DNA from: Candidatus Thalassarchaeum sp.
GTDB taxonomy: Archaea; Thermoplasmatota; Poseidoniia; Poseidoniales; Thalassarchaeaceae
Assembly: GCA_022449945.1 (NCBI GenBank)
Contig: JAKURM010000003.1
Coordinates: 1-61,473 of the forward strand
Direction: 5' to 3'
Length of the DNA stretch: 61,473 nt
Positions 404-59,212 of the stretch are shown piece by piece. The notes beneath the pieces are model-generated. The model searched no databases and was not told the DNA's origin. It worked only from the letters and a program-made list of their open reading frames with translations. The translations under genes and the position numbers were made by a program. How positions within the stretch are numbered: the first letter of the stretch is position 1; every line of letters starts with the position of its first letter.

Positions 404-1897
404 ATGCAGCGCGTTGCGGCAGTGTGCTTAGCCCTGATTCTTCTATCGGCTCAATCCTCAGGGTGCTTCTCGGATGATGGAGAGGTTGAACTGGTGCCGG
501 CCGGAGACCTCACGGTCTCACCCTCACAGCTGGTTGGTGCCCAACTGCAGTCAGTTGAGTTCGCTGCTTCTAGCCCGATGATGGTCCACGTGCCCTACTT
601 GGTATTGGACCGGGAAACTGGCCTGTTCACCAATGGGACCAATATCCACTTTGGTGGTTCTGGCTCGCAGACCATAGAGATGATTGCACCGCCAAACATC
701 CAGAGTGCTTTCTTCCTTCTTGCAGGGGGCGGGGCCTTCCCTAATGACGGAGATTGGCCCATTAGATCCTCCAACCAGTCTTGGCAGGAGTGGTTCGACT
801 CCGAGGAATTCCTGGACGAGCCGTACTCCTGGGTGGAGCATCCCGTGCTGCGTGAGAATCGATCTGGCTTCTCGCCCGAAGAGGGTTCTCTGCACGGGAC
901 TGGGATTATCGATGGCCTGAGCGCATACGAGTGGTTGGAGGCATTCGCAGACCCGGACTCCGGTTACAACGAGAGATGGGGGCCATTCACCCTCAACGAC
1001 CCGACGTACATGAGGGCCGTTGAGTACATGCAGGGATATCTCCAGGGGATTGGTTTCGACGCCCAGGTTCACAGGTACTGGATCTCTGACTTCTCCTACG
1101 CCGTCAATGTGTGCGGCTACAAGACTGGGACGTTGTACCCTGACGAGTGGCTTGTCCTCGGGGCGCACTTGGACATTGCAGAGCCGGGTAGCCCACCAGG
1201 AGGTGGGTCCCATATCGGTGCTCACGACAACGGTGCAGGAGTTGCCCTGGTTCTAGAAGCCAGCAGGGGATTGGTTGAGTTCGATCATAGGAGGACGATA
1301 GCTGTCTGCTTCTGGAGCAACGAGGAAAACGGATACGACGGGGTTGACAGTTGGATAGCAAACATCCCCCAAGGGGTAACTGTGACCAACTACCTGAACG
1401 CCGATGCGGTTGGCACTAACTGGCCGGGATACTACACGCTGGTGGTAGACTGCATCCCCAACTACGACAACGAGAACATCGGAGACCAATGGGAGATGAT
1501 TCGGATGCTGGAGTGGGTCGGCTCCCAGAACAACGACATATCTGGTGCGCTTCAGCTAGGGAGGGAGATCTTCCACGATGAGGGGTACGCCTCGATGAAG
1601 GACGTGGACTCCTCTGACCAGAAGAGGCAGTCCATCTCAGTCCACGACAGCGACCGCGGGAGGTCCGACTACGAGAGGTTCGCAGACCAACTTGGAGTGG
1701 TCAGCGTGGACTGGGGGAGCCTGACTGGAGGTTCTGACTGCTATCACGCTCCGTGCGACACCCTCGACACCATGATTGACATGATGGTCACGGACAACGG
1801 AACAGGGCAGCAGAACCTGGTGGAGTCGTTCGACCTGATATCATGGTGGATGTTCACGGCCGCGATGGTTCTCGACGAGTCGCCGATATACGACTAG
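404..1897 (+). CDS. M28-family zinc aminopeptidase, probable secreted lipoprotein
   Basis: Contains the M28 metal-ligand blocks GAHLDIAEPG, GAHDNGAGVALVLE and FWSNEENGYDG. The track start at 212 is rejected because 212-332 is the opposite-strand Taw1 N-terminus. ATG at 404 gives MQRVAAVCLALILLSAQSSGC, a signal peptide plus lipobox-like Cys. Confidence 0.75.
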   Translation: MQRVAAVCLALILLSAQSSGCFSDDGEVELVPAGDLTVSPSQLVGAQLQSVEFAASSPMMVHVPYLVLDRETGLFTNGTNIHFGGSGSQTIEMIAPPNIQSAFFLLAGGGAFPNDGDWPIRSSNQSWQEWFDSEEFLDEPYSWVEHPVLRENRSGFSPEEGSLHGTGIIDGLSAYEWLEAFADPDSGYNERWGPFTLNDPTYMRAVEYMQGYLQGIGFDAQVHRYWISDFSYAVNVCGYKTGTLYPDEWLVLGAHLDIAEPGSPPGGGSHIGAHDNGAGVALVLEASRGLVEFDHRRTIAVCFWSNEENGYDGVDSWIANIPQGVTVTNYLNADAVGTNWPGYYTLVVDCIPNYDNENIGDQWEMIRMLEWVGSQNNDISGALQLGREIFHDEGYASMKDVDSSDQKRQSISVHDSDRGRSDYERFADQLGVVSVDWGSLTGGSDCYHAPCDTLDTMIDMMVTDNGTGQQNLVESFDLISWWMFTAAMVLDESPIYD

Positions 1898-2535
1898 CCG
1901 TACTTCACTCCAGTTCCGTATGCAAATATCTCTACGGCCCGAGGTCCATTCTTCGCTGAGGCTGGTGTCATCTCCGCAGTATCTATCCTGACATTCAGAA
2001 CCTCGTCCCATCCCTCTTCCATTGCCCTTTCCCTCAGCAGCTGCTTAGCCTCGGACCTAGCAGCAGCTATGACTTTCTGAAGAATGTTGATCCTTCCGCC
2101 GATTAGGTTGTTGAACCATACGATCAGCAGCATCCAGTGACTGGGCGCGTAAACGATGCTCGAGTAGACTAGTCCGGAGTTATTCACGCCTCCAACTATG
2201 TGGGAGCCCTTGAGGGTCGAGAGTGGATCCTTCCCGAAGTGCTCTATCGAGGCTTGTTCCCTGAGCACTACTGCGTTGACCCTCCTCTCGAGGTTTCGCC
2301 CGCTGAATAAGGCACCAAATAGGAACATGAACGGATAAGCTGCACCGAAAACAACCCAAGCAAGAGCAAACAGAATCCAGGGGAGTACGCAGCATCCCAC
2401 TACAAACAGAACCAATGGGGGGTCTTCTTTTTGCGGTTCTTCTACCACGCCCTGGGCTGAGACTACCACGGAGAATGCTAACACTGATAGCAGCGCTATA
2501 GTTAGCGTCCTCACCCTATTCGAACGGTAGTCCAT
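1894..2535 (-). CDS. Membrane-anchored YbjQ/UPF0145-like protein
   Basis: The N-terminal ~80 aa hold a hydrophobic signal/TM segment and two TM helices. The C-terminal half (GGRINILQKVIAAARSEAKQLLRERAMEEGWDEVLNVRID...AVEIFAYGTGVKY) mirrors the UPF0145 core of the downstream paralog. Confidence 0.55.
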   Translation of the reverse strand: MDYRSNRVRTLTIALLSVLAFSVVVSAQGVVEEPQKEDPPLVLFVVGCCVLPWILFALAWVVFGAAYPFMFLFGALFSGRNLERRVNAVVLREQASIEHFGKDPLSTLKGSHIVGGVNNSGLVYSSIVYAPSHWMLLIVWFNNLIGGRINILQKVIAAARSEAKQLLRERAMEEGWDEVLNVRIDTAEMTPASAKNGPRAVEIFAYGTGVKYG

Positions 2536-2547
2536 GAGACCACCTCG

Positions 2548-2883
2548 CTACTCGACCTTTACTGCGGTCCCATATGCGAACAGTTCGGCGGCACCAGAGG
2601 TAACAGCGCTCGTAGCAAAGCGGACATTGACTATCGCATTTGCTCCACGAGCCGCTGCGTCGGCGACCATCCGTGCGATAGCCTCGCTCCTGGACTCCTC
2701 GAGAAGCTCGGTGTACTTCACTAGCTCACCGCCCATGATGTTTCTCAGGGCCTGGGTGATGTCTCTGCCGACGTTCTTCGCCCTGACTGTGGAGCCTCCT
2801 ACGACTCCTAGGTTCTGAGTTATTACCTTCCCTGCAATTGTCTCGGTGTTGACAACCATTATTCCGTCTCTTATGTGCTGCAT
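2548..2883 (-). CDS. YbjQ/UPF0145 family protein
   Basis: 111 aa. The sequence IAGKVITQNLGVVGGSTVRAKNVGRDI...GGELVKYTELLEESRSEAIARMVADAAARGANAIVNVRF...AELFAYGTAVKV fits the canonical UPF0145 pattern. Confidence 0.8.
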   Translation of the reverse strand: MQHIRDGIMVVNTETIAGKVITQNLGVVGGSTVRAKNVGRDITQALRNIMGGELVKYTELLEESRSEAIARMVADAAARGANAIVNVRFATSAVTSGAAELFAYGTAVKVE

Positions 2884-2918
2884 GCTAACTGGTGGGCAAA
2901 GTAGTTATTCAATTCTCG

Positions 2919-3581
2919 CTATTCTTCCTGGCTCGTTGAACTCATGTGGAAAGCGGAGGGCAGCTCTACCTTAGTGGGCGGCCTGGTCTGGTACGCAATC
3001 ATGGCAAGTCCTGCCGCCATAGTGAGCTCGCACATCAGTACCCCCCCATATGAGGCGATTTGGTTGAACGTGGAAATGAACCCCATGTCTAGTCCATCAG
3101 AGGGCATCTCGGTGTAGAATCTAGTAGACCATGAAACCAATTCATGGGTAACGTACAGCTGGGAGGCAGCGTGCACACCCAACCACCCCCAGGCGAGTTT
3201 GAGCGCGGTACTCCTGTCTTCGGCGTTCCACATCACTAAAGCAGTTGGAATGGACATCAGGAAGAGCAGTGCCGAGGCAGCGGCAGCTACATCCCAGATT
3301 CTCGATTCACCAAGCAGAATCAGTTCTTCGATCAGGGACACGCATTCTTCAAATTCAACCCCATCTAATTCCCCCGATTCATCGTCGGATGCGCATATCT
3401 CTTCTGGGACCATTCCAGAAACCGCCTCGGCCATCAGAAGACCTGCAACACCCATGGCAATTGCATTGATTAGTGATAAGAGTCCTAGAATTACGATGAA
3501 AATAGATCCTCCCTTCAGCCACCAAGGGGAGGGTCCGCTTGGATCCGTCTGGGGGACGTAGAGTGAATCGGCCACGGCCAC
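2919..3581 (-). CDS. Polytopic membrane protein, unknown function
   Basis: 220-aa ORF with about 4 hydrophobic helices and an acidic loop (CASDDESGELDGVEFEEC). No recognisable motif. Confidence 0.45.
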   Translation of the reverse strand: MAVADSLYVPQTDPSGPSPWWLKGGSIFIVILGLLSLINAIAMGVAGLLMAEAVSGMVPEEICASDDESGELDGVEFEECVSLIEELILLGESRIWDVAAAASALLFLMSIPTALVMWNAEDRSTALKLAWGWLGVHAASQLYVTHELVSWSTRFYTEMPSDGLDMGFISTFNQIASYGGVLMCELTMAAGLAMIAYQTRPPTKVELPSAFHMSSTSQEE

Positions 3582-3608
3582 CGGAAGAGGTCGGACGCCA
3601 AAGATGTG

Positions 3609-4058
3609 TCAGTCGATATAACGCATCTCTAGCCTTTCGTCCGAACGCATCATCGTGTGTATGCACTGCCTGGATGGGTTGACGATGAAGCCTTGTCTGA
3701 GGAAGTTCCTGCCGAGGATCATCCTGTGCTTGAGCTTAGCCCTATCTGCCAGGCAGACCTCGACGTCGAAGTCTCGGGATGCTATCTCCAGCGAGGTCCT
3801 AATCACGGGCCTCAGCGACTCGTGACCACCGGTGTCACGGATTCGTCTCCAATTGAACAGCGGCCTCTCCACCCAGTCACCACCCTCATCGAGCCTGAAT
3901 CTGACCCGAGTCTCGGGCTGCCCCTCGATAATCTCAATCTCGGATGCGTGCAGGGTGTTCGACCAGGCGCCAGTGTCGACCTTTGCCAGCAAGGGCGGTT
4001 TCTGAAGTTCAGGGAGGCCCACCCACTCCCTCCATCCAATAATAGCTGGCCTAATCAT
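3609..4058 (-). CDS. Retropepsin-like aspartic protease family protein (DUF785 / so-called ATP-dependent zinc protease, RimB-like)
   Basis: IIGWREWVGLPEL...AKVDTGAWSNTLHA...RPVI...ADRAKLKHRMILGRNFL shows the DTGA aspartyl signature and family-typical N- and C-terminal blocks. Start chosen at the internal ATG at 4058 (MIRPAIIGW); the track start is 4106. Confidence 0.6.
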   Translation of the reverse strand: MIRPAIIGWREWVGLPELQKPPLLAKVDTGAWSNTLHASEIEIIEGQPETRVRFRLDEGGDWVERPLFNWRRIRDTGGHESLRPVIRTSLEIASRDFDVEVCLADRAKLKHRMILGRNFLRQGFIVNPSRQCIHTMMRSDERLEMRYID

Positions 4059-4190
4059 GCGTGCACCGGCTTCTCGGGATAACGGACATTCTTGAATCCA
4101 ACGCAATTATTGTGTTTTTGGGGGAGTCGGATTGGGAAACAATATACTCACATGGAATCGTTGAAGTACGAGTCTCCACGCGTATCCCTA

Positions 4191-5648
4191 ATGGCGCAGA
4201 TTGAGACTGCTCTGAGTTACGACGATGTTCTACTGCTACCTGCTGAATCGGCAGTTCTTCCTGCAGAAGTTGATCTGACAACCCGGCTTACCACTGGGAT
4301 CACTCTGAATGCACCAATAGTTTCGGCAGCTATGGATACGGTTACAGAGGCCGAGATGGCCATTGCAATGGCCCAATGCGGAGGTATCGGGGTAATTCAC
4401 CGGAACATGGGAATTGAGGATCAGGCCGAGGAAGTTGACAAAGTCAAGAGGTTCGAGTCTGGTCTGGTCCTCGAGCCGATAACAGTAGAACCAAGCATGA
4501 CAGTTGGCGAGCTTAGAGATCTCAAGGAACATTACGGATTCTCCGGCTTCCCGGTCATTAATGGCAAAGGAGGGATTGTCGGGATGGTTACGAACCGCGA
4601 CATCCGCTTCGTAGAGGAAGAGTCCACTACTGTCTCGGATGTGATGACCACTGACCTAGTCACTGTTCCAGAGCACGTTGATCTCGATGACGCCAAGCGA
4701 CTCCTCCACCAGCATCGCATAGAGAAGTTGGTAGTTGTCGACTCCGAGGGAGGTTTCTCAGGACTTATCACTGTCAGGGATATCAATCGCTCGAAGGACA
4801 ACCCACTGTCTTGCAAGGACGACAGGGGGAGGCTGCGAGTTGTGGCAGGAACCGGGACGGGAGAAAAGGGAGTGCTTCGGGCTCTGGCGATGTTCGAAGC
4901 CGGTGCAGATGCGGTTGCGGTTGACACGGCCCATGGGCACTCGCGGGGAGTTCTCCAGACGGTGGGTGCAATTAGAGATCAAGCCGGTCCCGATGCCCAG
5001 ATTATCGCTGGTAACGTAGGTACTCCGGAAGCGGCTGAAGCTCTGATAGAATGTGGTGCAAATGCTATCAAAGTCGGGATAGGTCCCGGCTCGATTTGCA
5101 CAACTAGGATAGTGACCGGTGTCGGAGTTCCGCAGTTCACCGCCGTAATGGGGGCAGTCGAGGCCTGCTCAAAGCACGGTGTCCCGGTAATTGCCGATGG
5201 CGGGATAAAGTACAGCGGTGACATCGCCAAGGCAATAGCATCGGGAGCAGACTGTGTAATGGTCGGCTCTCTTCTTGCAGGTACGGACGAATCTCCAGGG
5301 GAGACCATCCTATACCAAGGCAGGTCATACAAGCAATACAGGGGGATGGGGTCACTAGGAGCCATGAGCAAGGGATCATCCGACCGGTATTTCCAATCCG
5401 AGCAGGGCGACACAAGTAAGTACGTCCCAGAAGGGATAGAGGGTAGGGTCCCGGCCAGGGGACCAGTTGACAACGTCCTTTACCAGCTGATGGGGGGGCT
5501 AAGGAGCTCAATGGGTTACACCGGAAATAGCAGTATAAATCATATGAAGAAGAACTGCAAGTTCGTCAGAATCACCAATGCAGGACTTTCCGAGAGTCAC
5601 GTACACAACGTCGAAATCACGCGAGAGGCTCCAAACTACAGGAGGTAG
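4191..5648 (+). CDS. guaB: IMP dehydrogenase with CBS pair
   Basis: Motifs [28 protein letters not shown], the CBS region, [14 protein letters not shown] (catalytic Cys loop), [10 protein letters not shown] and YRGMGS. Start set at ATG 4191 ([13 protein letters not shown]). Confidence 0.95.
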
Positions 5649-5653
5649 TTGCT

Positions 5654-6181
5654 ATGGAGCAAATACACCTTGGAGGAGGCTGCTTCTGGTGCATAGAAGG
5701 TGGATTGCTTGGGCTCATAGGAGTCTCGGAGGTTGTTCCAGGATACTCCGGTGGGCACGTCGAAAACCCCACTTACGAGCAAGTATGCGGGAAGATGACG
5801 GGTCATGCAGAGGTCGTCAGGGTAACCTTCGACCCGGAGGTGATTTCCAGGATTACTCTGCTTAGGGTTTTCCACACTCTCTTCGACCCAACTCAGTTGA
5901 ATAGGCAAGGCAACGACGTGGGGCCGCAGTACAGGAGCATAGTGCTATATTCGGACGAGAGTCAGAAGAAAGATGCCCTTGCAGTCATAGAGCAGGTTTC
6001 GGAGTACTACGAAGGCCCTGTGGTGACGGAAGTCGTTCCGCTGGAAGTATTCTGGGAGGCAGAGGAGTACCATCATGACTACTTCTCCAGGAATGGAAGC
6101 ACGAATCCGTACTGTATCGCTGTAGTGGCACCGAAAATCGCTAAGGCTAGGGACAGTTACGCAGAGCTGTATGAGAGATGA
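5654..6181 (+). CDS. msrA: Peptide methionine-S-sulfoxide reductase
   Basis: GGGCFWCIEG...GYSGGHVENPTYEQVCGKMTGHAEVVRVTFDP...YHHDYF are classic MsrA blocks. Confidence 0.9.
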   Translation: MEQIHLGGGCFWCIEGGLLGLIGVSEVVPGYSGGHVENPTYEQVCGKMTGHAEVVRVTFDPEVISRITLLRVFHTLFDPTQLNRQGNDVGPQYRSIVLYSDESQKKDALAVIEQVSEYYEGPVVTEVVPLEVFWEAEEYHHDYFSRNGSTNPYCIAVVAPKIAKARDSYAELYER

Positions 6182-7217
6182 AGTCGCGCTTGGCCCAGAG
6201 CCGTGGCCGGTTCACCTGCTGGGACTCATCACCCCAATTCTCGTAATCTTGGGGAATCTCCTTGGCATAGAGGAACCGATGTTCGTAGCCATGGGGGTGG
6301 TTTTCGTATGGGGAGTTTGTCCCATTCTTGACTTCATAATGGGTGAGACCAAGGTGCCAAGGCCCCCTAGGGAGTCTGGTACTCCATTCGAAGTCCTTCT
6401 CTGGGTTCATGGGATTCTTCATCTTGTGGTTCTTGGATCATTCTTCGTCTTCGCATTCTACGAAGGGATGACAGTGTGGCTAGTGGTGGCTGCATTGTCG
6501 ACCGGACTCAGTGCCGCAGCATCGGCAATCGTCACTGCACACGAATTGGGGCACAAGAGGCCAAAGAGTCCTGGATGGAGGCTAGCAAGAGTTCTTCTGT
6601 TTTCGATTCACTACACCCACTTCACTACGGAGCACAACGTGAACCATCACAAGAACGTCGGGCTAAACAGTGATCCAGCAAGTGCAACAGCAGAGCAGGG
6701 GCTCTGGTCTTTCTGGATAAGCACGATTCCTGGACAGTTCGCGTCCTCGGTGAGAATTCACAACAAGAAAGGAAGGACTGGTTTCAGGAACCCTTCCTAT
6801 AGGGGACTTTTCCTCCAGATAGTTGCGATCTCTTCCCTAGCGCTAGTCCCCGGTAGCATGGATTGGTTCGACGGAGCACCATTGGCCATAGGCTGGATAA
6901 TTCTTTCAACAATAGCGATTCTTACACTCGAGTATGTCAACTACATAAGGCACTGGGGACTTAGGAGGGGAGAAAGTGGAAGGTTCGAAGCAGGTCAAGC
7001 ATGGAACACCGAGGCTCGCTGGTCGAGGTGGAGTCTGATAGAGCTCACACGCCACTCTGATCATCACCTTCGTGCCAGCGTTCCATTCTGGAAGCTCAGG
7101 CCGCATGAGGGAACTCCTGAGCTTAGATGGGGTTACTACGGCTCATGGTGGCCCTGCCTAGTTCCTCCGATTTGGAAGCGAGCGATGAGCAGTAGACTGC
7201 CCGATAACGAGCCTTGA
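6171..7217 (+). CDS. AlkB-like integral-membrane di-iron hydroxylase (fatty-acid desaturase superfamily)
   Basis: Three His boxes (HELGH, EHNVNHH, HSDHH) plus NYIRHWGL, in a polytopic membrane protein. The start overlaps the msrA stop by 11 nt. Confidence 0.65.
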   Translation: MRDEVALGPEPWPVHLLGLITPILVILGNLLGIEEPMFVAMGVVFVWGVCPILDFIMGETKVPRPPRESGTPFEVLLWVHGILHLVVLGSFFVFAFYEGMTVWLVVAALSTGLSAAASAIVTAHELGHKRPKSPGWRLARVLLFSIHYTHFTTEHNVNHHKNVGLNSDPASATAEQGLWSFWISTIPGQFASSVRIHNKKGRTGFRNPSYRGLFLQIVAISSLALVPGSMDWFDGAPLAIGWIILSTIAILTLEYVNYIRHWGLRRGESGRFEAGQAWNTEARWSRWSLIELTRHSDHHLRASVPFWKLRPHEGTPELRWGYYGSWWPCLVPPIWKRAMSSRLPDNEP

Positions 7218-7254
7218 GTGATGCCTGAGTAGCGCAATTCTCAATAGTGTCACG

Positions 7255-7701
7255 ATGGCGAAATCGGGCATGGTACCTGACCCGGGAGAAGTGAGTGCGG
7301 GCAATACCACCTCGGCCCTGATCCATACTGGCCTACTCAGCGTAGGCCTTAGCAACCTATTCTGGAAGGGAACTGAGCTGAATCCAGACGACCCGGACAA
7401 GATGCTTCTGGTCGCTCTGGGGCTGTTCTGCTTGGCTCTTCCGTTCCAAGGACTGTACATCCTTCTTGCGAGGATGGTGAGGGAGTACTCAGACTCTGTC
7501 CTGGTACCCCAACCAATAATGAGTCTGGCTTCCCGATGCGAAATTGTTAGCTACTCTTGCGGCATTACTGGTTTCTGCCTGATGCTGATGAGAACCTCAT
7601 ACGTATTGGGGGGCACTCTTCTGATTTCAGCAGTACTAGTGATTCTGCTTGCTCGTTCTGCAATGATGAGAGTGGATGCGGCCAATCAGTCCGCCTACTA
7701 A
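7255..7701 (+). CDS. Small polytopic membrane protein, unknown function
   Basis: 148-aa ORF with about 4 hydrophobic helices and no motif. Coding status inferred from length and hydrophobic periodicity only. Confidence 0.4.
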   Translation: MAKSGMVPDPGEVSAGNTTSALIHTGLLSVGLSNLFWKGTELNPDDPDKMLLVALGLFCLALPFQGLYILLARMVREYSDSVLVPQPIMSLASRCEIVSYSCGITGFCLMLMRTSYVLGGTLLISAVLVILLARSAMMRVDAANQSAY

Positions 7702-7732
7702 GGATAATCAAGGGCTTACACTTCCTTGTGCC

Positions 7733-8653
7733 ATGCTGGACAGGTTGATGGATTATGGTGAAAGGGACAAGGGGCCGGACACGGCCCTAATCACGTCCAT
7801 TTTCCTGTTCTCATCCCTAGCATTCATCTCTCTTTCCGGAGTAATCGGGGACCATCAAAGCCAGGAACAGGTGGCAGAGTCTACACTGGTCAGTGACGAA
7901 GCCTTACTTTTCTTCAGATTCTTCTGCGCGGGCCTGAGTCTGGTTACGCTTGCCTGGGTGGCAATTGACCCCAAGGGCTCCCATGACTATCCTCTTTACT
8001 TCGAGGAAAGGGTAGTCAGAAGAAGAGATGTCTCGGGCCCGACTAGACTCGCACCCTATACGATGTGGCACTTCGCACTTTTCGGGTTCAGCTTTGCGGT
8101 TTCTGCTTTCGCGTCCTGGATCAACATCTCTGGAGGAGTGGTGCCAGAATGGGCGTTAGTTGCCTCTCCAGTGTTGTTCGCATCTAGCTACACATGCGCT
8201 TTACTGGTCACATGCGTAATCTCGTTCCACATAATCTGGGACGAGATTGGGAAGGGGCATTCAGTCAATCACCTATTCAAGTGGTATGAGTTGGTGATGC
8301 ACAATGCCAATGTAGCTCTACTGGGAATAGCACTGGTGATCAATGGGATGGATGTCGACTGGCGATACTTTGCCTTCCCGATTGTTTTCGGGGTGGCATA
8401 CGTGGCCTGGGCAGCCGTATATGCCAATTTCATCTCTGGAGTCTTCATTTACGACTTTATGGACTACAGGAAGAGGGGGGCACCCCTGATCTACCTCGCT
8501 CTACTGGTAGTCCAGACCTCGTTCTTCGGATTGGTAATATTTCTTGACCGTCTTTCTGAATGGAGTCCTGCAGCTGGAGCGACAGCAATTCTTCTAATCA
8601 CGGCCATCATTACAACACTGAGCGAACCGGAACAGCCGGATGGTAATGATTGA
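7733..8653 (+). CDS. Polytopic membrane protein, unknown function
   Basis: About 8 hydrophobic helices. Start moved to ATG 7733 (MLDRLMDYGE) to avoid overlap with the preceding ORF. Confidence 0.5.
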   Translation: MLDRLMDYGERDKGPDTALITSIFLFSSLAFISLSGVIGDHQSQEQVAESTLVSDEALLFFRFFCAGLSLVTLAWVAIDPKGSHDYPLYFEERVVRRRDVSGPTRLAPYTMWHFALFGFSFAVSAFASWINISGGVVPEWALVASPVLFASSYTCALLVTCVISFHIIWDEIGKGHSVNHLFKWYELVMHNANVALLGIALVINGMDVDWRYFAFPIVFGVAYVAWAAVYANFISGVFIYDFMDYRKRGAPLIYLALLVVQTSFFGLVIFLDRLSEWSPAAGATAILLITAIITTLSEPEQPDGND

Positions 8654-8677
8654 GAGTAGCCGCCTGCTCGCAATGCC

Positions 8678-9037
8678 ATGGCCTGGGCAATAGATGTAGG
8701 TAAGATTCTGCTTACAGCACTGATAATCTTCTCAGTTGCACAGGTTTCAGAGAGGAGCACCATAATGGCTGCAGTTCTAGCCTCAATTCCCATAGTCAGC
8801 GTACTTTCGATGATGCTGATGTTCCACGAGGGTCAGACCGCATTGGAGATTTCCGCATTCGCTCGGGACATAGTATGGCTCCTAATTCCATCTCTGCTGA
8901 TTTTCATAGTCATGCCCTGGCTGATAGAGAGCAAGGGCTGGGAATTCTACCCTGCTCTGGCCGCTGGTCTTTCATCTACAATCGTCGGATATTTCGTAAT
9001 GGTCCAACTAATGGAGCGTTTAGGATTGTCATCCTGA
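8678..9037 (+). CDS. Small membrane protein (4 TM), unknown function
   Basis: 119 aa and strongly hydrophobic (ILLTALIIFSVAQV, AAVLASIPIVSVLSMMLMF, IVWLLIPSLLIFIVMPWL, LAAGLSSTIVGYFVMV). Confidence 0.5.
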   Translation: MAWAIDVGKILLTALIIFSVAQVSERSTIMAAVLASIPIVSVLSMMLMFHEGQTALEISAFARDIVWLLIPSLLIFIVMPWLIESKGWEFYPALAAGLSSTIVGYFVMVQLMERLGLSS

Positions 9038-9107
9038 GAAGTGGTTCGATGTCAGTACTGAACGTTGCTGCCATGAGAATTATGGGAGTAGCCAAGGGAA
9101 TCTCAAA

Positions 9108-9332
9108 CTAGTATTTCTTCGACCGGCATTTGGTGCACTGGAAGAACCAAATATCATCTGGATTGGGGCCATACTCCATTCCACATTTTATCTTCCCATA
9201 CTTTGCTGCCCTCTCCTCGTGATTCTCGGGATATGGGATGACGATGCCACAGGTCCGCCCCTCATGACGAGTGATGTGAAATTCACTACTCTCCGATACA
9301 ACCTGACGGACTGGGACTTGCCCCTCAGGCAT
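9108..9332 (-). CDS. Small 4-Cys protein, unknown function, divergent from the Ubl operon
   Basis: 74 aa with Cys at RTCG, KCG and CTKC, so possibly zinc-binding. A TATA-like AAAATATTA (9350-9358) lies about 20 nt upstream of its ATG, so the transcript may be leaderless. Confidence 0.4.
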   Translation of the reverse strand: MPEGQVPVRQVVSESSEFHITRHEGRTCGIVIPYPENHEERAAKYGKIKCGMEYGPNPDDIWFFQCTKCRSKKY

Positions 9333-9467
9333 GAAATCACGATGCTCGTAAAATATTAGACCCTTTCCTAGAGCGTTTCTGGTCCGACATGATTCGAGCG
9401 GGCCAGAGAATTGCTCGTCCCTTCATATAGGTTGGAAGGCAATCAATCAGGAAAGGAGGTTTAGGCA
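9333..9467. promoter_or_regulatory. Divergent intergenic control region (TATA-like boxes and an SD for the Ubl gene)
   Basis: AAAATATTA at 9350-9358 is near the minus-strand gene. ATATAGG at 9425-9431 lies about 37 nt upstream of the Ubl ATG. AGGAGGT at 9454-9460 lies 7 nt upstream of ATG 9468. Confidence 0.35.
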
Positions 9468-9686
9468 ATGACAGATATCAAGACACTAGTCCAGATCGCT
9501 GATCAGAATGGTCACACCTCCGCGATGATGACGAGAGAAGAAACTCTCGAAGCCGTAGCGGAGAACAATGGCGCCTGGGTTTTCAATGGTGAGGGACAGA
9601 TGGTCCAGCCGGCTCAGCTGGCTGAAGCAGACTTCAGCACCATTGGGACCGTGCGCATCGTGCCAGGTCTGGTAGGCGGACTGTGA
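9468..9686 (+). CDS. Ubiquitin-like / ThiS-MoaD-like beta-grasp protein with masked C-terminal diglycine (…VGGL)
   Basis: 72 aa. The C-terminus TVRIVPGLVGGL-stop resembles ThiS/MoaD/SAMP tails (…GG) but has one extra residue. It has a strong SD and lies immediately upstream of the E1-like and JAB genes. Confidence 0.6.
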   Translation: MTDIKTLVQIADQNGHTSAMMTREETLEAVAENNGAWVFNGEGQMVQPAQLAEADFSTIGTVRIVPGLVGGL

Positions 9687-9719
9687 CACAGAGAAAAACC
9701 ACCATCGGAACTACGTAAA

Positions 9720-9746
9720 CCCCCGCTGGGGACTCTCCAGCGGGGG
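9720..9746 (+). promoter_or_regulatory. GC-rich intercistronic stem-loop between the Ubl and E1-like genes
   Basis: Perfect 10-bp inverted repeat CCCCCGCTGG (9720-9729) / CCAGCGGGGG (9737-9746) with a 7-nt loop. No T-tract follows. Confidence 0.5.
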
Positions 9747-9781
9747 CCAACAATTAACAGAGAAATGAAAGAGATGAGAAA

Positions 9782-10441
9782 ATGGACATATCAGTAATCG
9801 GGGCGGGCGGCATAGGCTCGAACTTTGTTCGAAGCGTAGCACCTGCAATTTCTACTGGCTCCCTTGTCGAATCACTGGGAGGGGCTAATCTAATGATTTT
9901 CGACTCTGACTCGGTTGAGGAGAAAAACCTGAGACTAGGGCAGAGGTTCGGACATGGCGACCTTGGCCTATCCAAAGTCGAAGCGATAAAGAGGTCGATT
10001 CTTGCGTTCGAAGGAGACCTGTTGAGCGTAGTGGCATACGAGCATGACATCAGGGGGGCTGGCGATATCCAGAAGTCCGACGTTGTGGTAGTTTGCGTGG
10101 ACAACATGCATGCAAGGAGGATTGTGCACTCTCTCGATGTCCCATGGCTAGACCTTCGGTGCTCTGGTGACGGTTACGTCGCAATAGACCACAGAGTGGA
10201 GGCATCAGTAGTTTCGAGCCTGTCAAATGACTCGGTTCATTCCCACTCTTGCCAATTGGAAGGATGGGAATCGGGCTTCCTGCAGGCAGGATTCTTAGCA
10301 GCTGCTGCACATGGATACCAGTGGCTTATCGCTATTATGAGGCAGTTAAGCGGTTTCGAAAGGGCGGTTCTTCCGGAGCCCAGATCCACAAGCGTGACGT
10401 TCGGGACCCTTGGGAAACTGCCTATGTCGGAGGAAATGTGA
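9782..10441 (+). CDS. Minimal ThiF/MoeB/E1-like adenylyltransferase
   Basis: Starts directly with the Rossmann loop VIGAGGIGS. Then come FDSDSVEEKNLRLGQRF (the DxDxVexsNLnRQ block), LSKVEA and CVDNMHARR (the DN..aR block). Only 219 aa, with no CxxC zinc motifs and no rhodanese or E2 fusion. Confidence 0.75.
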   Translation: MDISVIGAGGIGSNFVRSVAPAISTGSLVESLGGANLMIFDSDSVEEKNLRLGQRFGHGDLGLSKVEAIKRSILAFEGDLLSVVAYEHDIRGAGDIQKSDVVVVCVDNMHARRIVHSLDVPWLDLRCSGDGYVAIDHRVEASVVSSLSNDSVHSHSCQLEGWESGFLQAGFLAAAAHGYQWLIAIMRQLSGFERAVLPEPRSTSVTFGTLGKLPMSEEM

Positions 10442-10972
10442 ATGGCGGATAGACCCTTATTACCAAGCCCTCCAGTAGAAGAAATTCTGCATGATCGAGA
10501 GGCAGTTAATATTGCCATAGAAGAGGGCAGGCACTCGTCTCTCATCATATGTGAGACCATAGCCGCCCTAACCAAACTAGGGAGGTTCGAGGAGCTCTGG
10601 AAAATAGCCGATAGCATGTCTAAAGAGGTCAGTGTACTAGTTGACGCAGAAGGAAGGGTCTGGGTAGACATAGGAACGAAGAGCAGCGTGAGATTATCTC
10701 CTGCCCAGGGTTCAGTAATCCCATACAGGCTCTGGCTTCACACACATCCCCACGAGGCCTATGCGAGTCAGACGGATAGAGGCACCCTAGCGGGGTGTTC
10801 CATGATTCTTCATGAGGCCATAGTTCTTGGACATGATCACATGGTCAGGCTTCAGAGAAAGCCGGCAGGAATTGGCAGGTCCCTGGAAGACTATGGACCC
10901 TTGTCTACTTGGACCTCAGATGAAGACATTGTGCTCTACTCCAGCCTCAAGGAGGACTACTATGACAGATAA
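10442..10972 (+). CDS. JAB/MPN+ (JAMM-like) metallopeptidase with N-terminal helical extension
   Basis: LWLHTHPHEAYASQTD (10739-10777) gives HxH-x6-S-xx-D, with an upstream Glu (KEVSVLVDAEG). The ATG directly abuts the E1 stop (TGAATG). Confidence 0.6.
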   Translation: MADRPLLPSPPVEEILHDREAVNIAIEEGRHSSLIICETIAALTKLGRFEELWKIADSMSKEVSVLVDAEGRVWVDIGTKSSVRLSPAQGSVIPYRLWLHTHPHEAYASQTDRGTLAGCSMILHEAIVLGHDHMVRLQRKPAGIGRSLEDYGPLSTWTSDEDIVLYSSLKEDYYDR

Positions 10973-11201
10973 GCTAGAGCAAGCCACCAAGAGGCTAAGG
11001 AGGCTAGCAGAAGGAACCGAAGAAGGAACAAGTGGACTATCTATTTCCTCAATGATCGAGGCAGTGGTCGGGCCCGGCTACGATGACGAGCTTGCGGGCC
11101 TTGTATCCATGGCACTCAGGGCCAGTGAAAGCGGGATGAGCCTTGACGAGATAGCAAAGGGGATTCTGTCATTGGAAGACTGGAGATACAGTCATTCCTG
11201 A
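10962..11201 (+). CDS. 79-aa helical protein, possibly an HTH, translationally coupled to the JAB gene
   Basis: ATG at 10962 overlaps the JAB 3' end by 11 nt and follows GGAGGA (10951-10956). The product is MTDKLEQATKRLRRLAEG...SGMSLDEIAKGILSLED, and the last part resembles a helix-turn-helix. The track ORF 10827-11201 is trimmed to this start. Confidence 0.5.
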   Translation: MTDKLEQATKRLRRLAEGTEEGTSGLSISSMIEAVVGPGYDDELAGLVSMALRASESGMSLDEIAKGILSLEDWRYSHS

Positions 11202-12455: not shown

Positions 12456-14381
12456 TCAAGGGATGTGCTGATCGGATCCTGGCAATAGAGCAGCAGTTCC
12501 GGGGTTTACTCGTTCGAACATACTCCAAAGTGGTGCTGCAATGACTCGGATTCGGCCATTGACAACCAGCCTGTGCTCAAGCATCCCGGCGATTTCCTCC
12601 ACATCGTTCCCCAGATCTGCCTCACCGGTTCCGGTCCTGATGTAGATTCTCAGAGACCCTCTGACTCCCTCTTCAACCTTGTCTCTGATCCAACCAGATG
12701 CCTGTAGCATGCGATACAAGACCTGCCTGTCCTCCATGTTGTATGTCCTGAAAGTGGTCTCGCAGTCGTCGAATGAGACGTTTGGTGGCCCATTCCTGTT
12801 CATTGCAGTGAACGTCATCCTAGAACCGAGGGGCATTCGAAGAAGGACCCCCCATAGACGAGGGAATGATTCTGTGCACCTAGTCTGGGTCCGTGCTATT
12901 CGGTTCCTTGCAAGTTGGTACCGAAGCTCTTCGGCTCGATTGTGGGCTGTAACATCTGGGTTCTGGGCCTGTCTCGGCCTATGCCTTCTGATGTGAGACC
13001 TCAGAGTGTCGATGTGATTCTGACTAGACAGGTCATCTAGCAATGAAAGTACGATCGTACCGATCGCATCGCCAAGTACAAGCCTCCTAAGTTCCGGTCT
13101 CTCGACTATGCAGATTGCCCGATCTCGGAATGCAATCCTCTGACGGAATTGGGGCCATCCATGCTGATGGCCTCTTGCTGGTTCAGCATCGCCCGTAATT
13201 GGACTAACTACGAACCTGGTTGAGTGGCCTCCCCTTCCAGGTCTAACTGCGTATCTCAGTCCGCTAGTTCCACGTACATGTATCTCGGTAGAGTCTTCAG
13301 TTATCTCCGCCCTCTGGTTTGCCTCCAGAACGTTTCTGAGGAAGTTTATCCCATTGACGTCCTTGCCTTCCACTACCCTCATTGGGGTGTCGGCAAAGAT
13401 GTGCTGCTGCAGAGTGCGAACCCGTCGGTGGTCAAAGTGGTCGGGCGGGCTCATAACCCAAGTTACTATTCTAGACCAGACCCTGGGGCAACTGTCGAGT
13501 TCGAGTCTCTTCCATCCGCTATTTCTCCTGACCCTTAGTTGGAGCCTTCCTCGATGAATTCTCAGTGTCGGTGGGACCTTTAGGTCTTCATCTGGAGGAT
13601 CAGTTGTCCAATCCATGCTGATTTGGGAATTGTCCCATCTCCTCAGCCACTCAGTTCCCTTGAACATCCATCTCTGTGCCCTGGGTGTTCTGCTACCAGG
13701 GATCCTGTGCCTCTGGAGCATTTCCATTATCCTGTACTCTCGCATCGAGTTAGTGGTGATAATCAGAGATGCGGGGTGGAATAGAGGGGATGTCTCCGGG
13801 GACATGCCCACGTCTGTAGGCAACTTCGAGCAAGCCAGGTCTATCGATCTGAGCAATAGCTTCCAATTCACCCCTTTGGAAACCCCTGGATGCCTGGAAA
13901 GTACCTTCATCAGACCTCTGTAGGGGATCTTGCAAGGCCGCCCATCTAGGAACCAGTACCCGTGTGCATGGCAAAGGTGACTCCCATCGGGGAGTAGTCC
14001 TCCGCGTGCAAGCTTTCGTAGTATTGCTTCGTGCTGCGAACCAATAGACCTGTTCGATATTACACTGGTTATATCGTCCTCAGAAATACTCCAATCAGGC
14101 GGAGGGACAGAAATTCTGTCCTGGGAACTCTCTCCCAACTGAAATGCCCAATCGTACTCATCATCCTGAATCGATCTTATCCTCGACCAAATCTGAGCTG
14201 GCCTCAATCCTGGTTTTCCAAGTTGGCTCCTCACTCTCAGTATCGTCTCTTTGTCCTGGACAAGGCCTACGTTCTGACCAGTTATGTGAGGAGAGAGGAG
14301 AGTACAAACCTGACATTTCTCCTGGTTTCCTTCAACTTCGCCTTTGCAACATTCGCACTTACGAAGATTGGGGTCATTCAT
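12456..14381 (-). CDS. Large Arg-rich protein of unknown function with N-terminal Zn ribbon (paralog 1)
   Basis: 641-aa uninterrupted ORF with N-terminal CECCKGEVEGNQEKCQVC. It shares several collinear blocks with the upstream gene product. The ATG overlaps the upstream stop (ATGAATGA). Confidence 0.6.
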   Translation of the reverse strand: MNDPNLRKCECCKGEVEGNQEKCQVCTLLSPHITGQNVGLVQDKETILRVRSQLGKPGLRPAQIWSRIRSIQDDEYDWAFQLGESSQDRISVPPPDWSISEDDITSVISNRSIGSQHEAILRKLARGGLLPDGSHLCHAHGYWFLDGRPCKIPYRGLMKVLSRHPGVSKGVNWKLLLRSIDLACSKLPTDVGMSPETSPLFHPASLIITTNSMREYRIMEMLQRHRIPGSRTPRAQRWMFKGTEWLRRWDNSQISMDWTTDPPDEDLKVPPTLRIHRGRLQLRVRRNSGWKRLELDSCPRVWSRIVTWVMSPPDHFDHRRVRTLQQHIFADTPMRVVEGKDVNGINFLRNVLEANQRAEITEDSTEIHVRGTSGLRYAVRPGRGGHSTRFVVSPITGDAEPARGHQHGWPQFRQRIAFRDRAICIVERPELRRLVLGDAIGTIVLSLLDDLSSQNHIDTLRSHIRRHRPRQAQNPDVTAHNRAEELRYQLARNRIARTQTRCTESFPRLWGVLLRMPLGSRMTFTAMNRNGPPNVSFDDCETTFRTYNMEDRQVLYRMLQASGWIRDKVEEGVRGSLRIYIRTGTGEADLGNDVEEIAGMLEHRLVVNGRIRVIAAPLWSMFERVNPGTAALLPGSDQHIP

Positions 14382-16083
14382 CGTTATCCCTCGGCCCCGA
14401 TTGAGGCATTCGCCGAATGCTCTCTAGCATTTCTTCTATTGCTTCTATCCTCCATCCATTCCCGTTGTCGATCGAGAATTCTGGGTCTGATTCGGCAAAT
14501 GGATCGGGCTCCGGCTCGGGCTCCGGCTCGGGCTCCGGCTCTGGTTCGTAGTCTGGTTCGTAGTCTGGATCGTATCCCGGATCATGGAATTCCCCATCCT
14601 CCCACATCTCATAGTGCCCCTCAACAGCTGACCACCAACTGTCCAGATCCCCACCTAGGTCGTATTTCTCATTTACATGTTCACAAGCAGAGAGAAGAAT
14701 GTTGAGAGTGAAAATCTGATTCCTTGAAGATATGTCGTTCCGGAGAGCAAGTACGTATGAGGCGCAGATGTCGCCAGCGCACAGGTTCTTGTTTGCAGAT
14801 ATCTGGTTAGGATCGATGCAAAGTTGGATGTGGACATGTGGTTTTCCTATGTGAGTTGAATTTGGAAGCGCGAAAACCATGAACTTTCCAGAATGTTCAG
14901 ACGGGTTGATTACGTATACTATTCCAGATTCCCCCACTACAAGTATACCCGTACTCTCGTCGGGCATGTGCTTTACTGGAAGGGTGGTCGAGTAGATGCC
15001 CAGCGAGTCAATAGTCTCTCGAAGGAAGCGGGAAGACCTCTCCTGCTGGATTGTTGGCCTCCATTCTGAATCTCGCGAGTCCCAAACCCAAAAGATGTTC
15101 TTCGAGAGCTCTGCTCCGTCTTCCTCTGGAGGGTAAAGAATGGAGTTCACCAGGACTCTCCATACCTTCGCATCGACAACCACCGGAGTCGTAGTCGGTG
15201 TTCCCGACTTTAGAACAATTAGACTGAGTCTTCCCCTTTCCACTACTAGCCTGGGATGTATCCTTATGGAAAACAGCCTGCAGAATTCCTCTTCTTTCCC
15301 TTTGCGGATAATCCCGCTCCAAGCCTCCGAGGCTTCTCCTCCGAATTCCGAAATTAATGATAAGGAGTCTCTTGCAATGCTACCCATCGACTTCTCGGCT
15401 GTTGCTCTTCTTCCCGAAATGAGGGCAATCAGTGAAAGGAAAGGGTGAAGATTTACACCTCGGAACTCCATATCTATCGATGGGTCGGGAACGTCGATTC
15501 CCTGCCACCCATTTTGCCTTAGCCATGGTGACCATTCACGGTCTTCCAAACTGGATATGCTTCTACAGCAGCAACTGAGGGCGAGTAGGAAGTGTTTCCA
15601 AGACCTGATGGCGGTAACTCTGTCCGGATTTGCCAGCCACTCGCAAATGTCCAGCATAGGCAATGGCCCTTCCAACCGTATCCCATCGATGGAAATCCTG
15701 TCTTGATGATCTATCTCTAGAAGGCAGTCTGGAAGGGAGTATAATCCCCTAGGAAGGTACCCATAAATCCTGAATGACTCAAGTGCGGACTTCCAGATTC
15801 CGGAGAATCCTTGCGAACTTACCCCATTGGGGCCCCTAGACGATCTGAATCCTGGTGGAAGATTGCTCTCGGGAAATGCCCCAGCAAGACTTAGCATCTT
15901 CTGCTCCGGGCTTAGCCCCCTGGCAGGGTCAAAGATTGAACTAGAGTGTTCTCGCTGCTTAGAATCCGGCCTCTGCGAATGATGGAGGCCGAAGAATGGC
16001 TCTTGGAGAGACTGACACCCAGCGCATCTCTCGTGTCCATCGGGTGCGCTAGAACCACACCACCCATTGCATGAAGACGGCAT
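14374..16083 (-). CDS. Large protein of unknown function with N-terminal Zn ribbon and acidic EP-repeat tail (paralog 2)
   Basis: 569-aa ORF with N-terminal CNGWCGSSAPDGHERCAGC and a C-terminal YDPDYEPDYEPEPEPEPEPEPEPDP. It begins 41 nt downstream of the dus stop on the same strand. Confidence 0.6.
   Translation of the reverse strand: MPSSCNGWCGSSAPDGHERCAGCQSLQEPFFGLHHSQRPDSKQREHSSSIFDPARGLSPEQKMLSLAGAFPESNLPPGFRSSRGPNGVSSQGFSGIWKSALESFRIYGYLPRGLYSLPDCLLEIDHQDRISIDGIRLEGPLPMLDICEWLANPDRVTAIRSWKHFLLALSCCCRSISSLEDREWSPWLRQNGWQGIDVPDPSIDMEFRGVNLHPFLSLIALISGRRATAEKSMGSIARDSLSLISEFGGEASEAWSGIIRKGKEEEFCRLFSIRIHPRLVVERGRLSLIVLKSGTPTTTPVVVDAKVWRVLVNSILYPPEEDGAELSKNIFWVWDSRDSEWRPTIQQERSSRFLRETIDSLGIYSTTLPVKHMPDESTGILVVGESGIVYVINPSEHSGKFMVFALPNSTHIGKPHVHIQLCIDPNQISANKNLCAGDICASYVLALRNDISSRNQIFTLNILLSACEHVNEKYDLGGDLDSWWSAVEGHYEMWEDGEFHDPGYDPDYEPDYEPEPEPEPEPEPEPDPFAESDPEFSIDNGNGWRIEAIEEMLESIRRMPQSGPRDNDE
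14504..14580 (-). repeat. Short in-frame tandem repeat encoding (DYEP)2(EP)n
   Basis: The plus strand reads GGGCTCCGGCTC GGGCTCCGGCTC GGGCTCCGGCTC TGGTTCGTAGTC TGGTTCGTAGTC TGGATCGTA, that is 12-nt units x3 then x2. Confidence 0.8.
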
Positions 16084-54202: not shown

Positions 54203-54766
54203 CTAGAACATTTTGAATTGGGCTTCATCAACGAAAACCTCCCTCGTCCACTCTCCAACGTCATGATTCCAAACCTCCGAGTTTCTACCTCCATAGAAGC
54301 GGTAATCCAGAGAAATCTCGACAGTGTAGTGTTCCCAGACAGACTGACCAAGGACAACCATCTCCAAATCGTCATTTGGAGTATTCGAGATAGAGCTGTG
54401 TGCTGGTAATTCTTCCATGTAGAAGTCGTGGCGGCCAACTTCGATCCCATCGGAGTCAAGGAGCCTCATGGTTACTGTGACGTCCTCGATTGCGCGGCTG
54501 CCCTTATTGTCTAGTTCGGCCAAAACAACATGTCCGGATGCCGATTGCATGTATGCCACGTCCATATCCACATTGTCATACGGTACAATCCAAATCAGGA
54601 CGAAAATTGAGGAGGATGCTATCAAGAATGCGATAATGGACGCAATTACGACTCGTGCGGGAGTCACGACATCAATAGCCCTGTCTCCTAACTTCTCGAG
54701 GATGACATGCGCGGTATCCACATCTTGCTCGCTCGCTTCTGTACGAAGCCTTCCCAGGAAACCCAT
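54203..54766 (-). CDS. Single-pass membrane protein with a beta-rich ectodomain, unknown function
   Basis: 187 aa with TM VVIASIIAFLIASSSIFVLIWIV. The ATG overlaps the stop of the upstream giant gene by 1 nt. Confidence 0.5.
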   Translation of the reverse strand: MGFLGRLRTEASEQDVDTAHVILEKLGDRAIDVVTPARVVIASIIAFLIASSSIFVLIWIVPYDNVDMDVAYMQSASGHVVLAELDNKGSRAIEDVTVTMRLLDSDGIEVGRHDFYMEELPAHSSISNTPNDDLEMVVLGQSVWEHYTVEISLDYRFYGGRNSEVWNHDVGEWTREVFVDEAQFKMF

Positions 54767-59136: not shown

Positions 59137-59212
59137 ATTGGGCGCACCTCCTAGAGGTGCGCTATATGGTATTGCCCTGCGTGTACCATGCAGTATCGTT
59201 GTTTCAACGTAC

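Follow-up and report, generated by a model that had tools for sequence, protein, structure and literature searches.

A putative ubiquitin-like protein conjugation pathway of Poseidoniales, with new partner families and divergent viral counterparts

A cluster of four genes in a contig of Candidatus Thalassarchaeum sp. encodes a putative ubiquitin-like protein (Ubl), an E1-like adenylating enzyme, a JAMM metallopeptidase and a small helical protein, h79. We consider these genes, with a probability of roughly 55% and on the strength of sequence evidence, to be the core of a Poseidoniales-specific Ubl protein-conjugation pathway. The cluster lies within positions 1–61,473 of the forward strand of contig JAKURM010000003.1 (assembly GCA_022449945.1), and this whole stretch of 61,473 nt is referred to below as the window. 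The system is real and previously unannotated; it is of the prokaryotic Ubl-E1-JAB kind, has new partner families and is lineage-wide in a major ocean archaeon. It is found only in the order Poseidoniales (Marine Group II, MGII) and, in diverged form, in virus contigs resembling their viruses. The case is built on genomic linkage and on the identities of the components, which are solid for the E1, at motif level for the JAMM and by tail and context for the Ubl; from these we infer all of the chemistry proposed below. Literature searches returned no description of the system in Poseidoniales, and the only related note found is a 2015 survey in which RING and UCH domains are reported from one single-cell genome of MGII (PMC4327156).

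Four plus-strand open reading frames (ORFs), the first of them with the GG-L tail, are located exactly where the original prediction, made from the letters of the window, had placed them (Table 1). The stop codon of the E1 gene directly abuts the ATG of the JAMM gene (TGAATG), and the h79 gene, preceded by a GGAGGA, overlaps the JAMM gene by 11 nt; the two are predicted to be translationally coupled. Homologs form 61 clusters for the E1, 209 for the Ubl and 126 for a 641-aa neighbour, all from marine or Poseidoniales sources, with records labelled, for example, Candidatus Thalassarchaeaceae or Poseidoniales. The loci fetched for comparison are labelled L001–L154, about 70 of them cellular and 80 viral (L075–L154). 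Gene order is kept across dozens of independent contigs, and because many homologs occur in this conserved order, the four ORFs are real genes and not chance reading frames. The anticipated archaeal operon of Ubl, E1, JAMM and small helical protein is upheld, with a neighbourhood that is conserved across loci.

The 219-aa protein was expected to be a ThiF/E1 adenylyltransferase, and its Pfam ThiF match of 53.1 bits against a cut-off of 28.1 (E = 3e-14, residues 3–117) bears this out. All PDB matches of a 15-sequence profile are adenylation domains of the E1 superfamily (MccB, Uba1, UBA5, MoeB, NAE1/UBA3, PaaA, Uba4 and Cap2), and hhalign aligns the enzyme with MoeB at 96% probability over residues 1–123. 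As originally noted, the protein lacks CxxC pairs and a rhodanese domain and is not fused to an E2. Residues that are invariant in the family include GxGGIG, D41xD43, N49, Q54, K65, C-V-D107, R112, W-x-DLR-C127 and S-C157-Q. Of these, D41, D43, K65 and D107 stand for ATP/Mg2+ ligands expected in the superfamily, namely the Asp following beta2, the Lys and the Asp of the C-x-D-N motif. The motif S-C157-Q-x-E/G-G is kept by both hosts and viruses, whereas C127 is not kept by viruses. C157 falls at the position of MoeB C187 and ThiF C184 by eye, from spacing, as the HMMER and hhalign alignments end at residue 123. The best NCBIfam names for the enzyme, ThiF and PRTRC_ThiF, both lie far under their equivalog cut-offs (41 versus 275 bits and 40.4 versus 144.75 bits, respectively), and the same holds for MoeB (22 versus 449) and UbaA (28 versus 450). 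We regard the 219-aa protein as a solid member of the ThiF/E1 superfamily that stands outside every named subfamily tested. Searches of the eight cassette and neighbour proteins against Pfam, NCBIfam, PHROGs and PADLOC recognised nothing except ThiF and the TFIIB ribbon of a neighbouring gene product. PADLOC gave only partial E1-E2 matches on the Rossmann part of the E1 (E = 5e-5, 20.5 bits) and nothing for the other seven proteins. With NCBIfam scores far under the cut-offs and only partial Rossmann matches in PADLOC, the earlier view that the cassette does not belong to the SAMP/UbaA, PRTRC, Bil or CBASS systems holds. The nearest approach to PRTRC is that PRTRC_ThiF is among the two best NCBIfam names; unlike in PRTRC cassettes, there is no ParB gene, there are no PRTRC A–F proteins and the context is not that of a plasmid or island.

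The tail and the context of the 72-aa protein suggest that it is a Ubl. Its homologs fall into clusters that are each at least 50% identical to it, and since this is true of all 209, the putative Ubl is more conserved than its E1. The Gly-Gly pair is near-invariant: of 120 host sequences, only a few lack it. Zero to two variable residues come after it (L in 50, I in 15, E in 9, Q in 6 and none in 3; S, R, N and C also occur), with several sequences having two residues beyond the GG. In a PDB search with a 30-sequence profile, ubiquitin came out on top, residues 34–70 of the Ubl being in register with residues 40–76 of ubiquitin, which suggests a weak, statistically non-significant resemblance to this part of ubiquitin. 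E-values of about 1e-6 obtained for poly-ubiquitin are a repeat artefact. Pfam has no match for the protein, and hhalign comparisons with ThiS and MoaD sequences were non-significant. Matches to HslV obtained with a first profile of five sequences were spurious, and the 30-sequence profile was used instead.

The assignment of the 176-aa protein as a JAB peptidase also stands, at the level of the JAMM/MPN+ motif. Invariant residues of its family are E62, W98, H100-x-H102-P and S109-x-x-D112. In the PDB, the family profile has 16 matches, every one a JAMM deubiquitinase; AMSH-LP is the best (E = 0.003), and AMSH, Sst2 and the Rpn11-like protein of Caldiarchaeum (E = 0.06) are among them. The x6 spacer of the window protein represents a one-residue deletion relative to the canonical HxHx7SxxD of the Poseidoniaceae and viral homologs. 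None of Pfam, PADLOC, NCBIfam and PHROGs names this protein; in Pfam neither JAB nor Prok-JAB reaches the threshold, and one relative matches Prok-JAB with E = 0.08. In both host families, nearly every cellular locus has an h79 gene after the JAMM gene; in the 80 fetched viral loci, h79 was not detected. The h79 protein has no family match, and a PDB search with its profile yielded only chance helical matches, so the former description of it as helix-turn-helix-like finds no support. The spacer between the Ubl and E1 genes contains an RNA hairpin, CCCCCGCUGGGG-ACU-CUCCAGCGGGGG, with a folding energy of -26.7 kcal/mol (z = -3.3). Hairpins with different stem sequences occupy the same place in L001, L004, L006 and L010, preceded by a conserved ACGGAAnnACGnAA box. 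This element probably acts within the operon as an attenuator or 3' stabiliser, raising Ubl over E1 by keeping the Ubl mRNA in excess.

Gene fusions provide a further connection between the components. In L043 (7512–8645, + strand), a single ORF encodes Ubl-Ubl-E1; both Ubls end in LVGG and the second runs directly into the GAGGIGS loop of the E1. Judged by its sequence, this polyubiquitin-like polyprotein must be cut after GG. In L071–73, the E1 and JAMM are fused into one protein of 429 aa (8610–9899, + strand) with two Ubl genes upstream. The Ubl-Ubl-E1 and E1-JAMM fusions therefore tie the parts together. The L071–73 loci (further gene coordinates 590–4609 and 6589–7251) also carry a gene for a 1339-aa single-subunit RNA polymerase (T7-type, PF00940) a few kb upstream, and L073 an HNH gene; there are hints that this variant is located on or beside a mobile or viral element.

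Scanning GTDB with one genome for each species yielded 59 loci, all in Poseidoniales except for four contigs in bacterial metagenome-assembled genome (MAG) bins. The latter, with complete Poseidoniales-type cassettes, are L017, L018 and L022 (NZKZ01, 'Acidiferrobacter sp.' MAG) and L020 ('Acidimicrobiaceae' MAG), and they almost certainly reflect binning contamination in public records. In a neighbor-joining tree of 132 E1 domains, Poseidoniaceae, Thalassarchaeaceae and viral sequences form three monophyletic groups. This topology and the host-virus identity of about 29% indicate vertical inheritance in the hosts and an old split between the host and viral versions. In the Poseidoniaceae loci (L008, L023–L070), an E1-JAMM-h79 triad is positioned between glycosyltransferase and 3HCDH/ECH genes, and Cys-domain proteins of about 795 aa, of the family described below, are encoded elsewhere in the genomes.

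The original prediction found no partner components evident next to the four genes and called the cassette compact, minimal and E2-less. Conserved partners are, however, present directly downstream, beyond the span considered at the time, and the "minimal, E2-less" framing is probably wrong, as a TFB-like gene and a candidate E2-like Cys-domain protein travel with the four genes. In every sufficiently long contig of the type represented by the window (Thalassarchaeaceae), the four genes are accompanied by the TFB-like gene and by a gene for a protein of about 640 aa; the loci behind this statement are the window, L001–7, L010–22 and L071–73. The linkage persists through inversions and translocations: the 640-aa gene may lie downstream of the cassette in the opposite orientation or, as in L006 and L022, upstream of it in the same orientation. 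The TFB-like gene is found in 19 loci of the window's type plus L071–73. Its product matches Pfam Zn_Ribbon_TF with 30.1 bits against a cut-off of 29, and the family profile matches the ribbon of Pyrococcus TFB (1pft) with 8e-10 and TFIIB across profile positions 19–147. A TFIIB cyclin repeat (Pfam TFIIB, 9e-6) is recognised only in the viral homolog and not in the 349-aa protein of the window. Two further sets of genes, encoding proteins of about 940 and 530 aa and a Metallophos plus 108-aa pair (L006, L010), were considered as members and rejected, as they are not conserved elsewhere; the large genes of L006 and L010 are not even homologous between these two loci.

The second partner, the 641-aa protein, consists of an N-terminal CxxC...CxxC zinc ribbon, a central domain with an invariant cysteine (Cys-domain, about residues 335–470) and a C-terminal alpha/beta domain. 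The cysteine, C424, lies within the motif ICIVE-PELRRLV-GDA...LLDD. None of the 126 clusters of homologs has a Pfam domain. The 569-aa protein encoded next to it is a paralog, aligned to the 641-aa family by hhalign with 98% probability (E = 3e-14) over residues 3–466 with the cysteine aligned, and roughly half of the window-type loci encode it. An exhaustive profile search expanded the Cys-domain family to 179 representatives at 50% identity, ranging from 220 to 870 aa, and those carrying a name are all from Poseidoniales. The family includes a 315-aa protein encoded directly after h79 in L008/L009 and a stand-alone 220-aa protein encoded upstream of the two Ubl genes in L071–73. One invariant Cys plus GD and D are common to host, remote and viral Cys-domains.

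AlphaFold2 modelled the full 641-aa protein with a predicted local distance difference test (pLDDT) score of 81, and the Cys-domain alone with a pLDDT of 80 and a predicted template modelling (pTM) score of 0.73. The order of elements in the domain model (helix, four-stranded meander, loop, Cys, short helix, long helix, two helices) is that of UBC domains, and the invariant Cys lies where the catalytic cysteine of an E2 would be expected, in the loop that follows beta4. When the domain model was compared with the PDB using Foldseek, about 35 of the top 50 matches were UBC/UEV proteins, including the UEV-like domain of VPS37A, UBE2S, Pex4, UBE2A and UBE2G1, and the full-length model produced a similar list. 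Against BFVD, a Catovirus E2 ranks first; in both libraries the matches stay below significance. These models suggest "E2-like" as the best available reading of the Cys-domain. As for a canonical E2 adjacent to the cassette, no E2 recognisable by Pfam is encoded there, and such an enzyme would be present only as the non-canonical, unproven UBC-like Cys-domain.

The arrangement invites comparison with the operon of Caldiarchaeum subterraneum and Asgard archaea, which encodes ubiquitin, E1, E2, a RING E3 and an Rpn11-like protein. Both are archaeal operons with Ubl, E1 and JAMM genes, and here too there is an additional cysteine-bearing candidate of UBC topology. The JAMM profile matches the Caldiarchaeum Rpn11-like protein, and the C-terminal half of the Ubl is in register with ubiquitin, albeit below significance. 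By contrast, the Poseidoniales system has no canonical UBC (no HPN, no Pfam UQ_con) and no RING, its E1 has neither a separate catalytic-Cys domain nor a ubiquitin-fold domain, and the E1 is the only one of these components that Pfam recognises.

Several observations weigh against a conjugation pathway built from these parts. The E1 has no N-terminal Arg-finger segment, with 6 residues only ahead of the GxGxxG loop. At the place of the nearly universal arginine of the NLxRQ motif, relatives have His, Phe or Tyr; in the family alignment (residues 49–54 of the window protein), most host relatives show His and the viral ones Tyr, and the sub-clade of the window has a one-residue insertion in this motif (NLRLGQ). 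The change in NLxRQ and the missing Arg-finger segment suggest an unusual ATP site. Single ubiquitin scores only E of about 0.4–1.3 with the Ubl profile, which is non-significant. For the Cys-domain, no Foldseek match to an E2 is significant (E = 0.1–4, best 0.1–0.4; TM-score 0.2–0.45; root-mean-square deviation 8–12 Å), the HPN motif is absent, and sequence profiles connect the domain with neither UBC nor Prok-E2 nor any chain of the PDB. Specifically, hhalign comparisons with UbcH5B, Ubc13, Ubc9 and Rad6 gave nothing, also with 124 diverse domains; profiles of the Cys-domain and of the full-length protein retrieved nothing relevant from PDB sequences; and Pfam, with UQ_con and Prok-E2 included, had no match among 58 remote Cys-domain proteins. 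Finally, 48 Poseidoniaceae triads have neither a Ubl nor a Cys-domain gene within 8 kb, the exception being L008.

Part of this evidence fits conjugation that proceeds without an E2, akin to sampylation, with Ubl, E1 and JAMM doing all the chemistry and the 641-aa, 569-aa and TFB-like proteins being targets, regulators or linked genes. SAMP/UbaA in Haloferax works without an E2 (PMC11354881), the statistics do not back an E2 assignment for the Cys-domain, and in Poseidoniaceae loci only E1, JAMM and h79 stay together. The SAMP/UbaA/HvJAMM1 system is similar also in being archaeal and in having a small GG-ending modifier (a putative beta-grasp protein in our case), only one E1, which is non-canonical and belongs to the MoeB/ThiF class, and a JAMM as the removing enzyme. 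However, three different architectures connect the Cys-domain, with its invariant cysteine, to the cassette, and the connection recurs in viruses. Furthermore, the E1 is not UbaA-like, given its UbaA score and the absence of CxxC pairs forming a zinc site and of the Arg finger. Unlike SAMPs, the Ubl has a tail predicted to be cleaved off, its gene belongs to a fixed operon that also includes h79, a TFB-like gene and genes for Cys-domain proteins, and the system has no link to molybdenum cofactor (Moco) or tRNA thiolation. On balance, E2-independent conjugation appears unlikely.

In the Ubl conjugation pathway that we propose, the JAMM would first remove the residue(s) past Gly71 (Leu72 in the window) and cut poly-Ubl precursors, a maturation step deduced from the variable Ubl tails and the Ubl-Ubl-E1 polyprotein. 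The E1, whose homology to adenylation domains is established, would adenylate the exposed Gly-Gly carboxylate and might next bind the Ubl as a thioester at Cys157, a residue kept from hosts to viruses and matched to MoeB Cys187 by eye only. The Ubl would be passed on to the invariant C424 of the UBC-like domain in the 641-aa protein, and likewise in the 569-aa paralog. The other domains of these two proteins may select targets, in which case the proteins would act as an E2 or a fused E2/E3. The Ubl would be attached to protein targets, and the JAMM could undo the attachment. h79 would be an obligate accessory of the E1/JAMM pair, and the TFB-like protein could serve as a dedicated regulator or, otherwise, as a target or adaptor.

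The original prediction had offered either a conjugation or a sulfur-carrier module. In the latter case, of the CysO-Mec+ or QbsCDE type, the JAMM would trim the carrier, the E1 would adenylate it, and sulfur would be loaded for a small molecule or tRNA. JAMM trimming of GG-xx tails is known from QbsD/QbsE and Mec+/CysO. The ThiS/MoaD-like size and GG end of the Ubl, its residues beyond GG, the presence of a trimming enzyme of the JAMM type and a ThiF/MoeB-class adenylase without E2 are all compatible with such a module, as are the best NCBIfam names of the E1, ThiF and PRTRC_ThiF, despite their low scores. Yet the context argues otherwise. In about 70 cellular loci, there are no genes for rhodanese, cysteine desulfurase, sulfurtransferase, thiamine, Moco, siderophore or tRNA-thiolation functions, and none of the 80 viral loci contains sulfur-transfer or biosynthetic genes. 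Embedding in thiamine, molybdopterin or tRNA-thiolation loci, which had been named as a check, was never seen in the loci examined. Unlike in the CysO-Mec+ and QbsCDE systems, the E1 is not fused to rhodanese and has no biosynthetic or sulfur-mobilising neighbours; it is accompanied instead by zinc-ribbon, TFB-like and Cys-domain proteins. The occurrence of Ubl-Ubl-E1 tandems in one polyprotein and of Ubl gene duplicates is in keeping with modifiers and not with carriers, and both the poly-Ubl fusions and the viral copies set the Poseidoniales-type system apart, the whole set being carried by virus genomes. Thus, conjugation is favoured, whereas a sulfur-carrier function, for which there is no supporting context, is very unlikely.

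Homologs of the system also occur in viral sequences. In IMG/VR, 356 stretches encode relatives of the E1 with 28–35% identity. Of the 80 loci fetched from these, 77 have a JAMM, 55 a Ubl, 50 a Cys-domain and 27 a TFB-like gene according to our own hidden Markov models. The viral contigs are mostly up to about 96 kb in length. Viral Ubls end in VGG plus zero to two variable residues, the GG being present in 43 of 45 distinct sequences; viral E1s retain the SCQ cysteine and lose C127, viral JAMMs are canonical, and viral Cys-domains retain ICIDN...GDQ...ND. In L082 (94.6 kb), homologs of the Ubl, Cys-domain, TFB-like protein, E1 and JAMM are spread across about 8 kb (1694–10076) among replication genes. 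This contig, the one on which magrovirus hallmark genes were checked, also encodes a class II ribonucleotide reductase, TFIIB with a cyclin repeat, a GroEL-type chaperonin and an ATP-dependent DNA ligase, and these extra genes match the set reported for group B magroviruses (PMC5434244). In the magrovirus literature that was searched, ubiquitin, ThiF and JAB are not mentioned. The INPHARED phages include no close relatives; the only matches are crAss-like ThiF proteins with about 30% identity over the Rossmann half.

The viral copies raise the question of whether the same biochemistry plays a role in virus-host conflict, as antiviral defence and/or magrovirus take-over of the host, rather than in housekeeping. 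JAMM, Ubl and Cys-domain genes are each found in a majority of the fetched viral loci, and the Cys-domain family is expanded and variable, as would suit such a role. Furthermore, the Bil, CBASS and Bub Ubl systems of bacteria are antiviral (PMC10557695, PMC11601596). The Poseidoniales system shares with Bil (BilABCD), CBASS Cap2/Cap3 and Bub the four-part logic of Ubl, E1, JAB peptidase and E2-like protein (a candidate here), precursor processing after GG (predicted here) and an association with viruses, and the E1-JAMM fusion in L071 is reminiscent of the peptidase-E1 fusion of Bub (BubCD). However, PADLOC matches nothing beyond the Rossmann fold, where its E1-E2 models give partial matches (20 bits), and the Poseidoniales system differs from the bacterial ones in that the E2 candidate is fused to a zinc ribbon, in the TFB-like partner, in the archaeal host and in the chromosomal, vertically inherited locus. 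The host cassette is found at a fixed syntenic position among housekeeping genes, and the E1 tree follows host families with no recent exchange with the viral clade. A conflict role is a possibility to which we give limited credence. Equally tentative is a more specific picture, in which Poseidoniales and magroviruses would each possess their own version of an unrecognised Ubl conjugation pathway with a diverged UBC-like transferase bearing a zinc ribbon; since a TFB paralog is the companion, the pathway would tag components of transcription initiation, or those of the rival, and would be contested between virus and host.

Table 1. Positions of the cassette genes, the spacer hairpin and the partner genes in the window.
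Feature	Position	Strand	Evidence
Putative Ubl precursor, 72 aa, ends ...RIVPGLVGGL	9468–9686	+	GG tail, family profile
RNA hairpin, 12 bp, GC-rich	9720–9746	+	Ubl-E1 spacer, folding energy
Minimal E1-like adenylating enzyme, 219 aa, begins MDISVIGAGGIGS	9782–10441	+	Pfam ThiF
JAMM/MPN+ metallopeptidase, 176 aa, contains HTHPHEAYASQTD = HxH-x6-S-xx-D	10442–10972	+	Motif, profile
h79, 79-aa helical accessory protein	10962–11201	+	Position after JAMM gene
TFB/TFIIB-like zinc-ribbon protein, 349 aa	11406–12455	+	Pfam Zn_Ribbon_TF, family profile
641-aa zinc-ribbon and Cys-domain protein, candidate E2-like or E2/E3-like	12456–14381	-	Linkage, AlphaFold2 model
569-aa paralog of the 641-aa protein (zinc ribbon and Cys-domain, IQLCIDPN...AGD)	14374–16083	-	hhalign

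The surroundings of the cassette are those of an ordinary archaeal chromosome. The window is archaeal because a uS2 gene of the eukaryotic/archaeal type, a gene for a DusB-family dihydrouridine synthase and a thermosome-size ORF stand side by side in it; relatives have Cpn60_TCP1 at the position of the latter ORF. The rest of the window includes genes for seryl-tRNA synthetase, subunits of acyl-CoA carboxylase and Mrp/Nuo-type antiporters, and a subtilase. Scanning the window for Rfam families and tRNAs gave no match. A recent proviral or island origin of the cassette was considered and rejected on account of the fixed synteny among housekeeping genes, the host-tracking E1 tree and the host-like GC content, which is 0.50–0.51 versus 0.31–0.41 in viral contigs.

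Divergently oriented from the Ubl gene is an ORF for a 74-aa Cys-rich protein (C...C, CxxC; 9108–9332, - strand), which is 50% identical in L001 and may be a further zinc-ribbon partner. L006 carries a different ORF of 67 aa at this place, a relative of which is present in L010. In close relatives, a gene for a 331-aa protein with a GTP_EFTU_D2 domain (L001:8349–9344) is located between a membrane-protein gene and the small Cys-rich ORF; the window has no such gene at the corresponding place (about 9037–9108). Two giant ORFs are found on the minus strand of the window. One encodes 1535 aa (54766–59373) and has no Pfam domain, and the other encodes an S8 subtilase of 1507 aa with CARDB and NEW3 domains (49619–54142), which is probably a surface protein.

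Poseidoniales are abundant ocean archaea, and an order-wide dedicated Ubl pathway, if true, would represent a major regulatory layer that annotation has missed, given that Pfam has a name for the E1 alone. If confirmed, the candidate E2-like family would constitute an independent and very divergent branch of the UBC fold outside the line leading from Asgard archaea and Aigarchaeota to eukaryotes. The magrovirus-like gene sets would, in turn, be a Ubl system of archaeal viruses and would make Ubl tagging between viruses and hosts in archaea testable by metatranscriptomes and metaproteomes.

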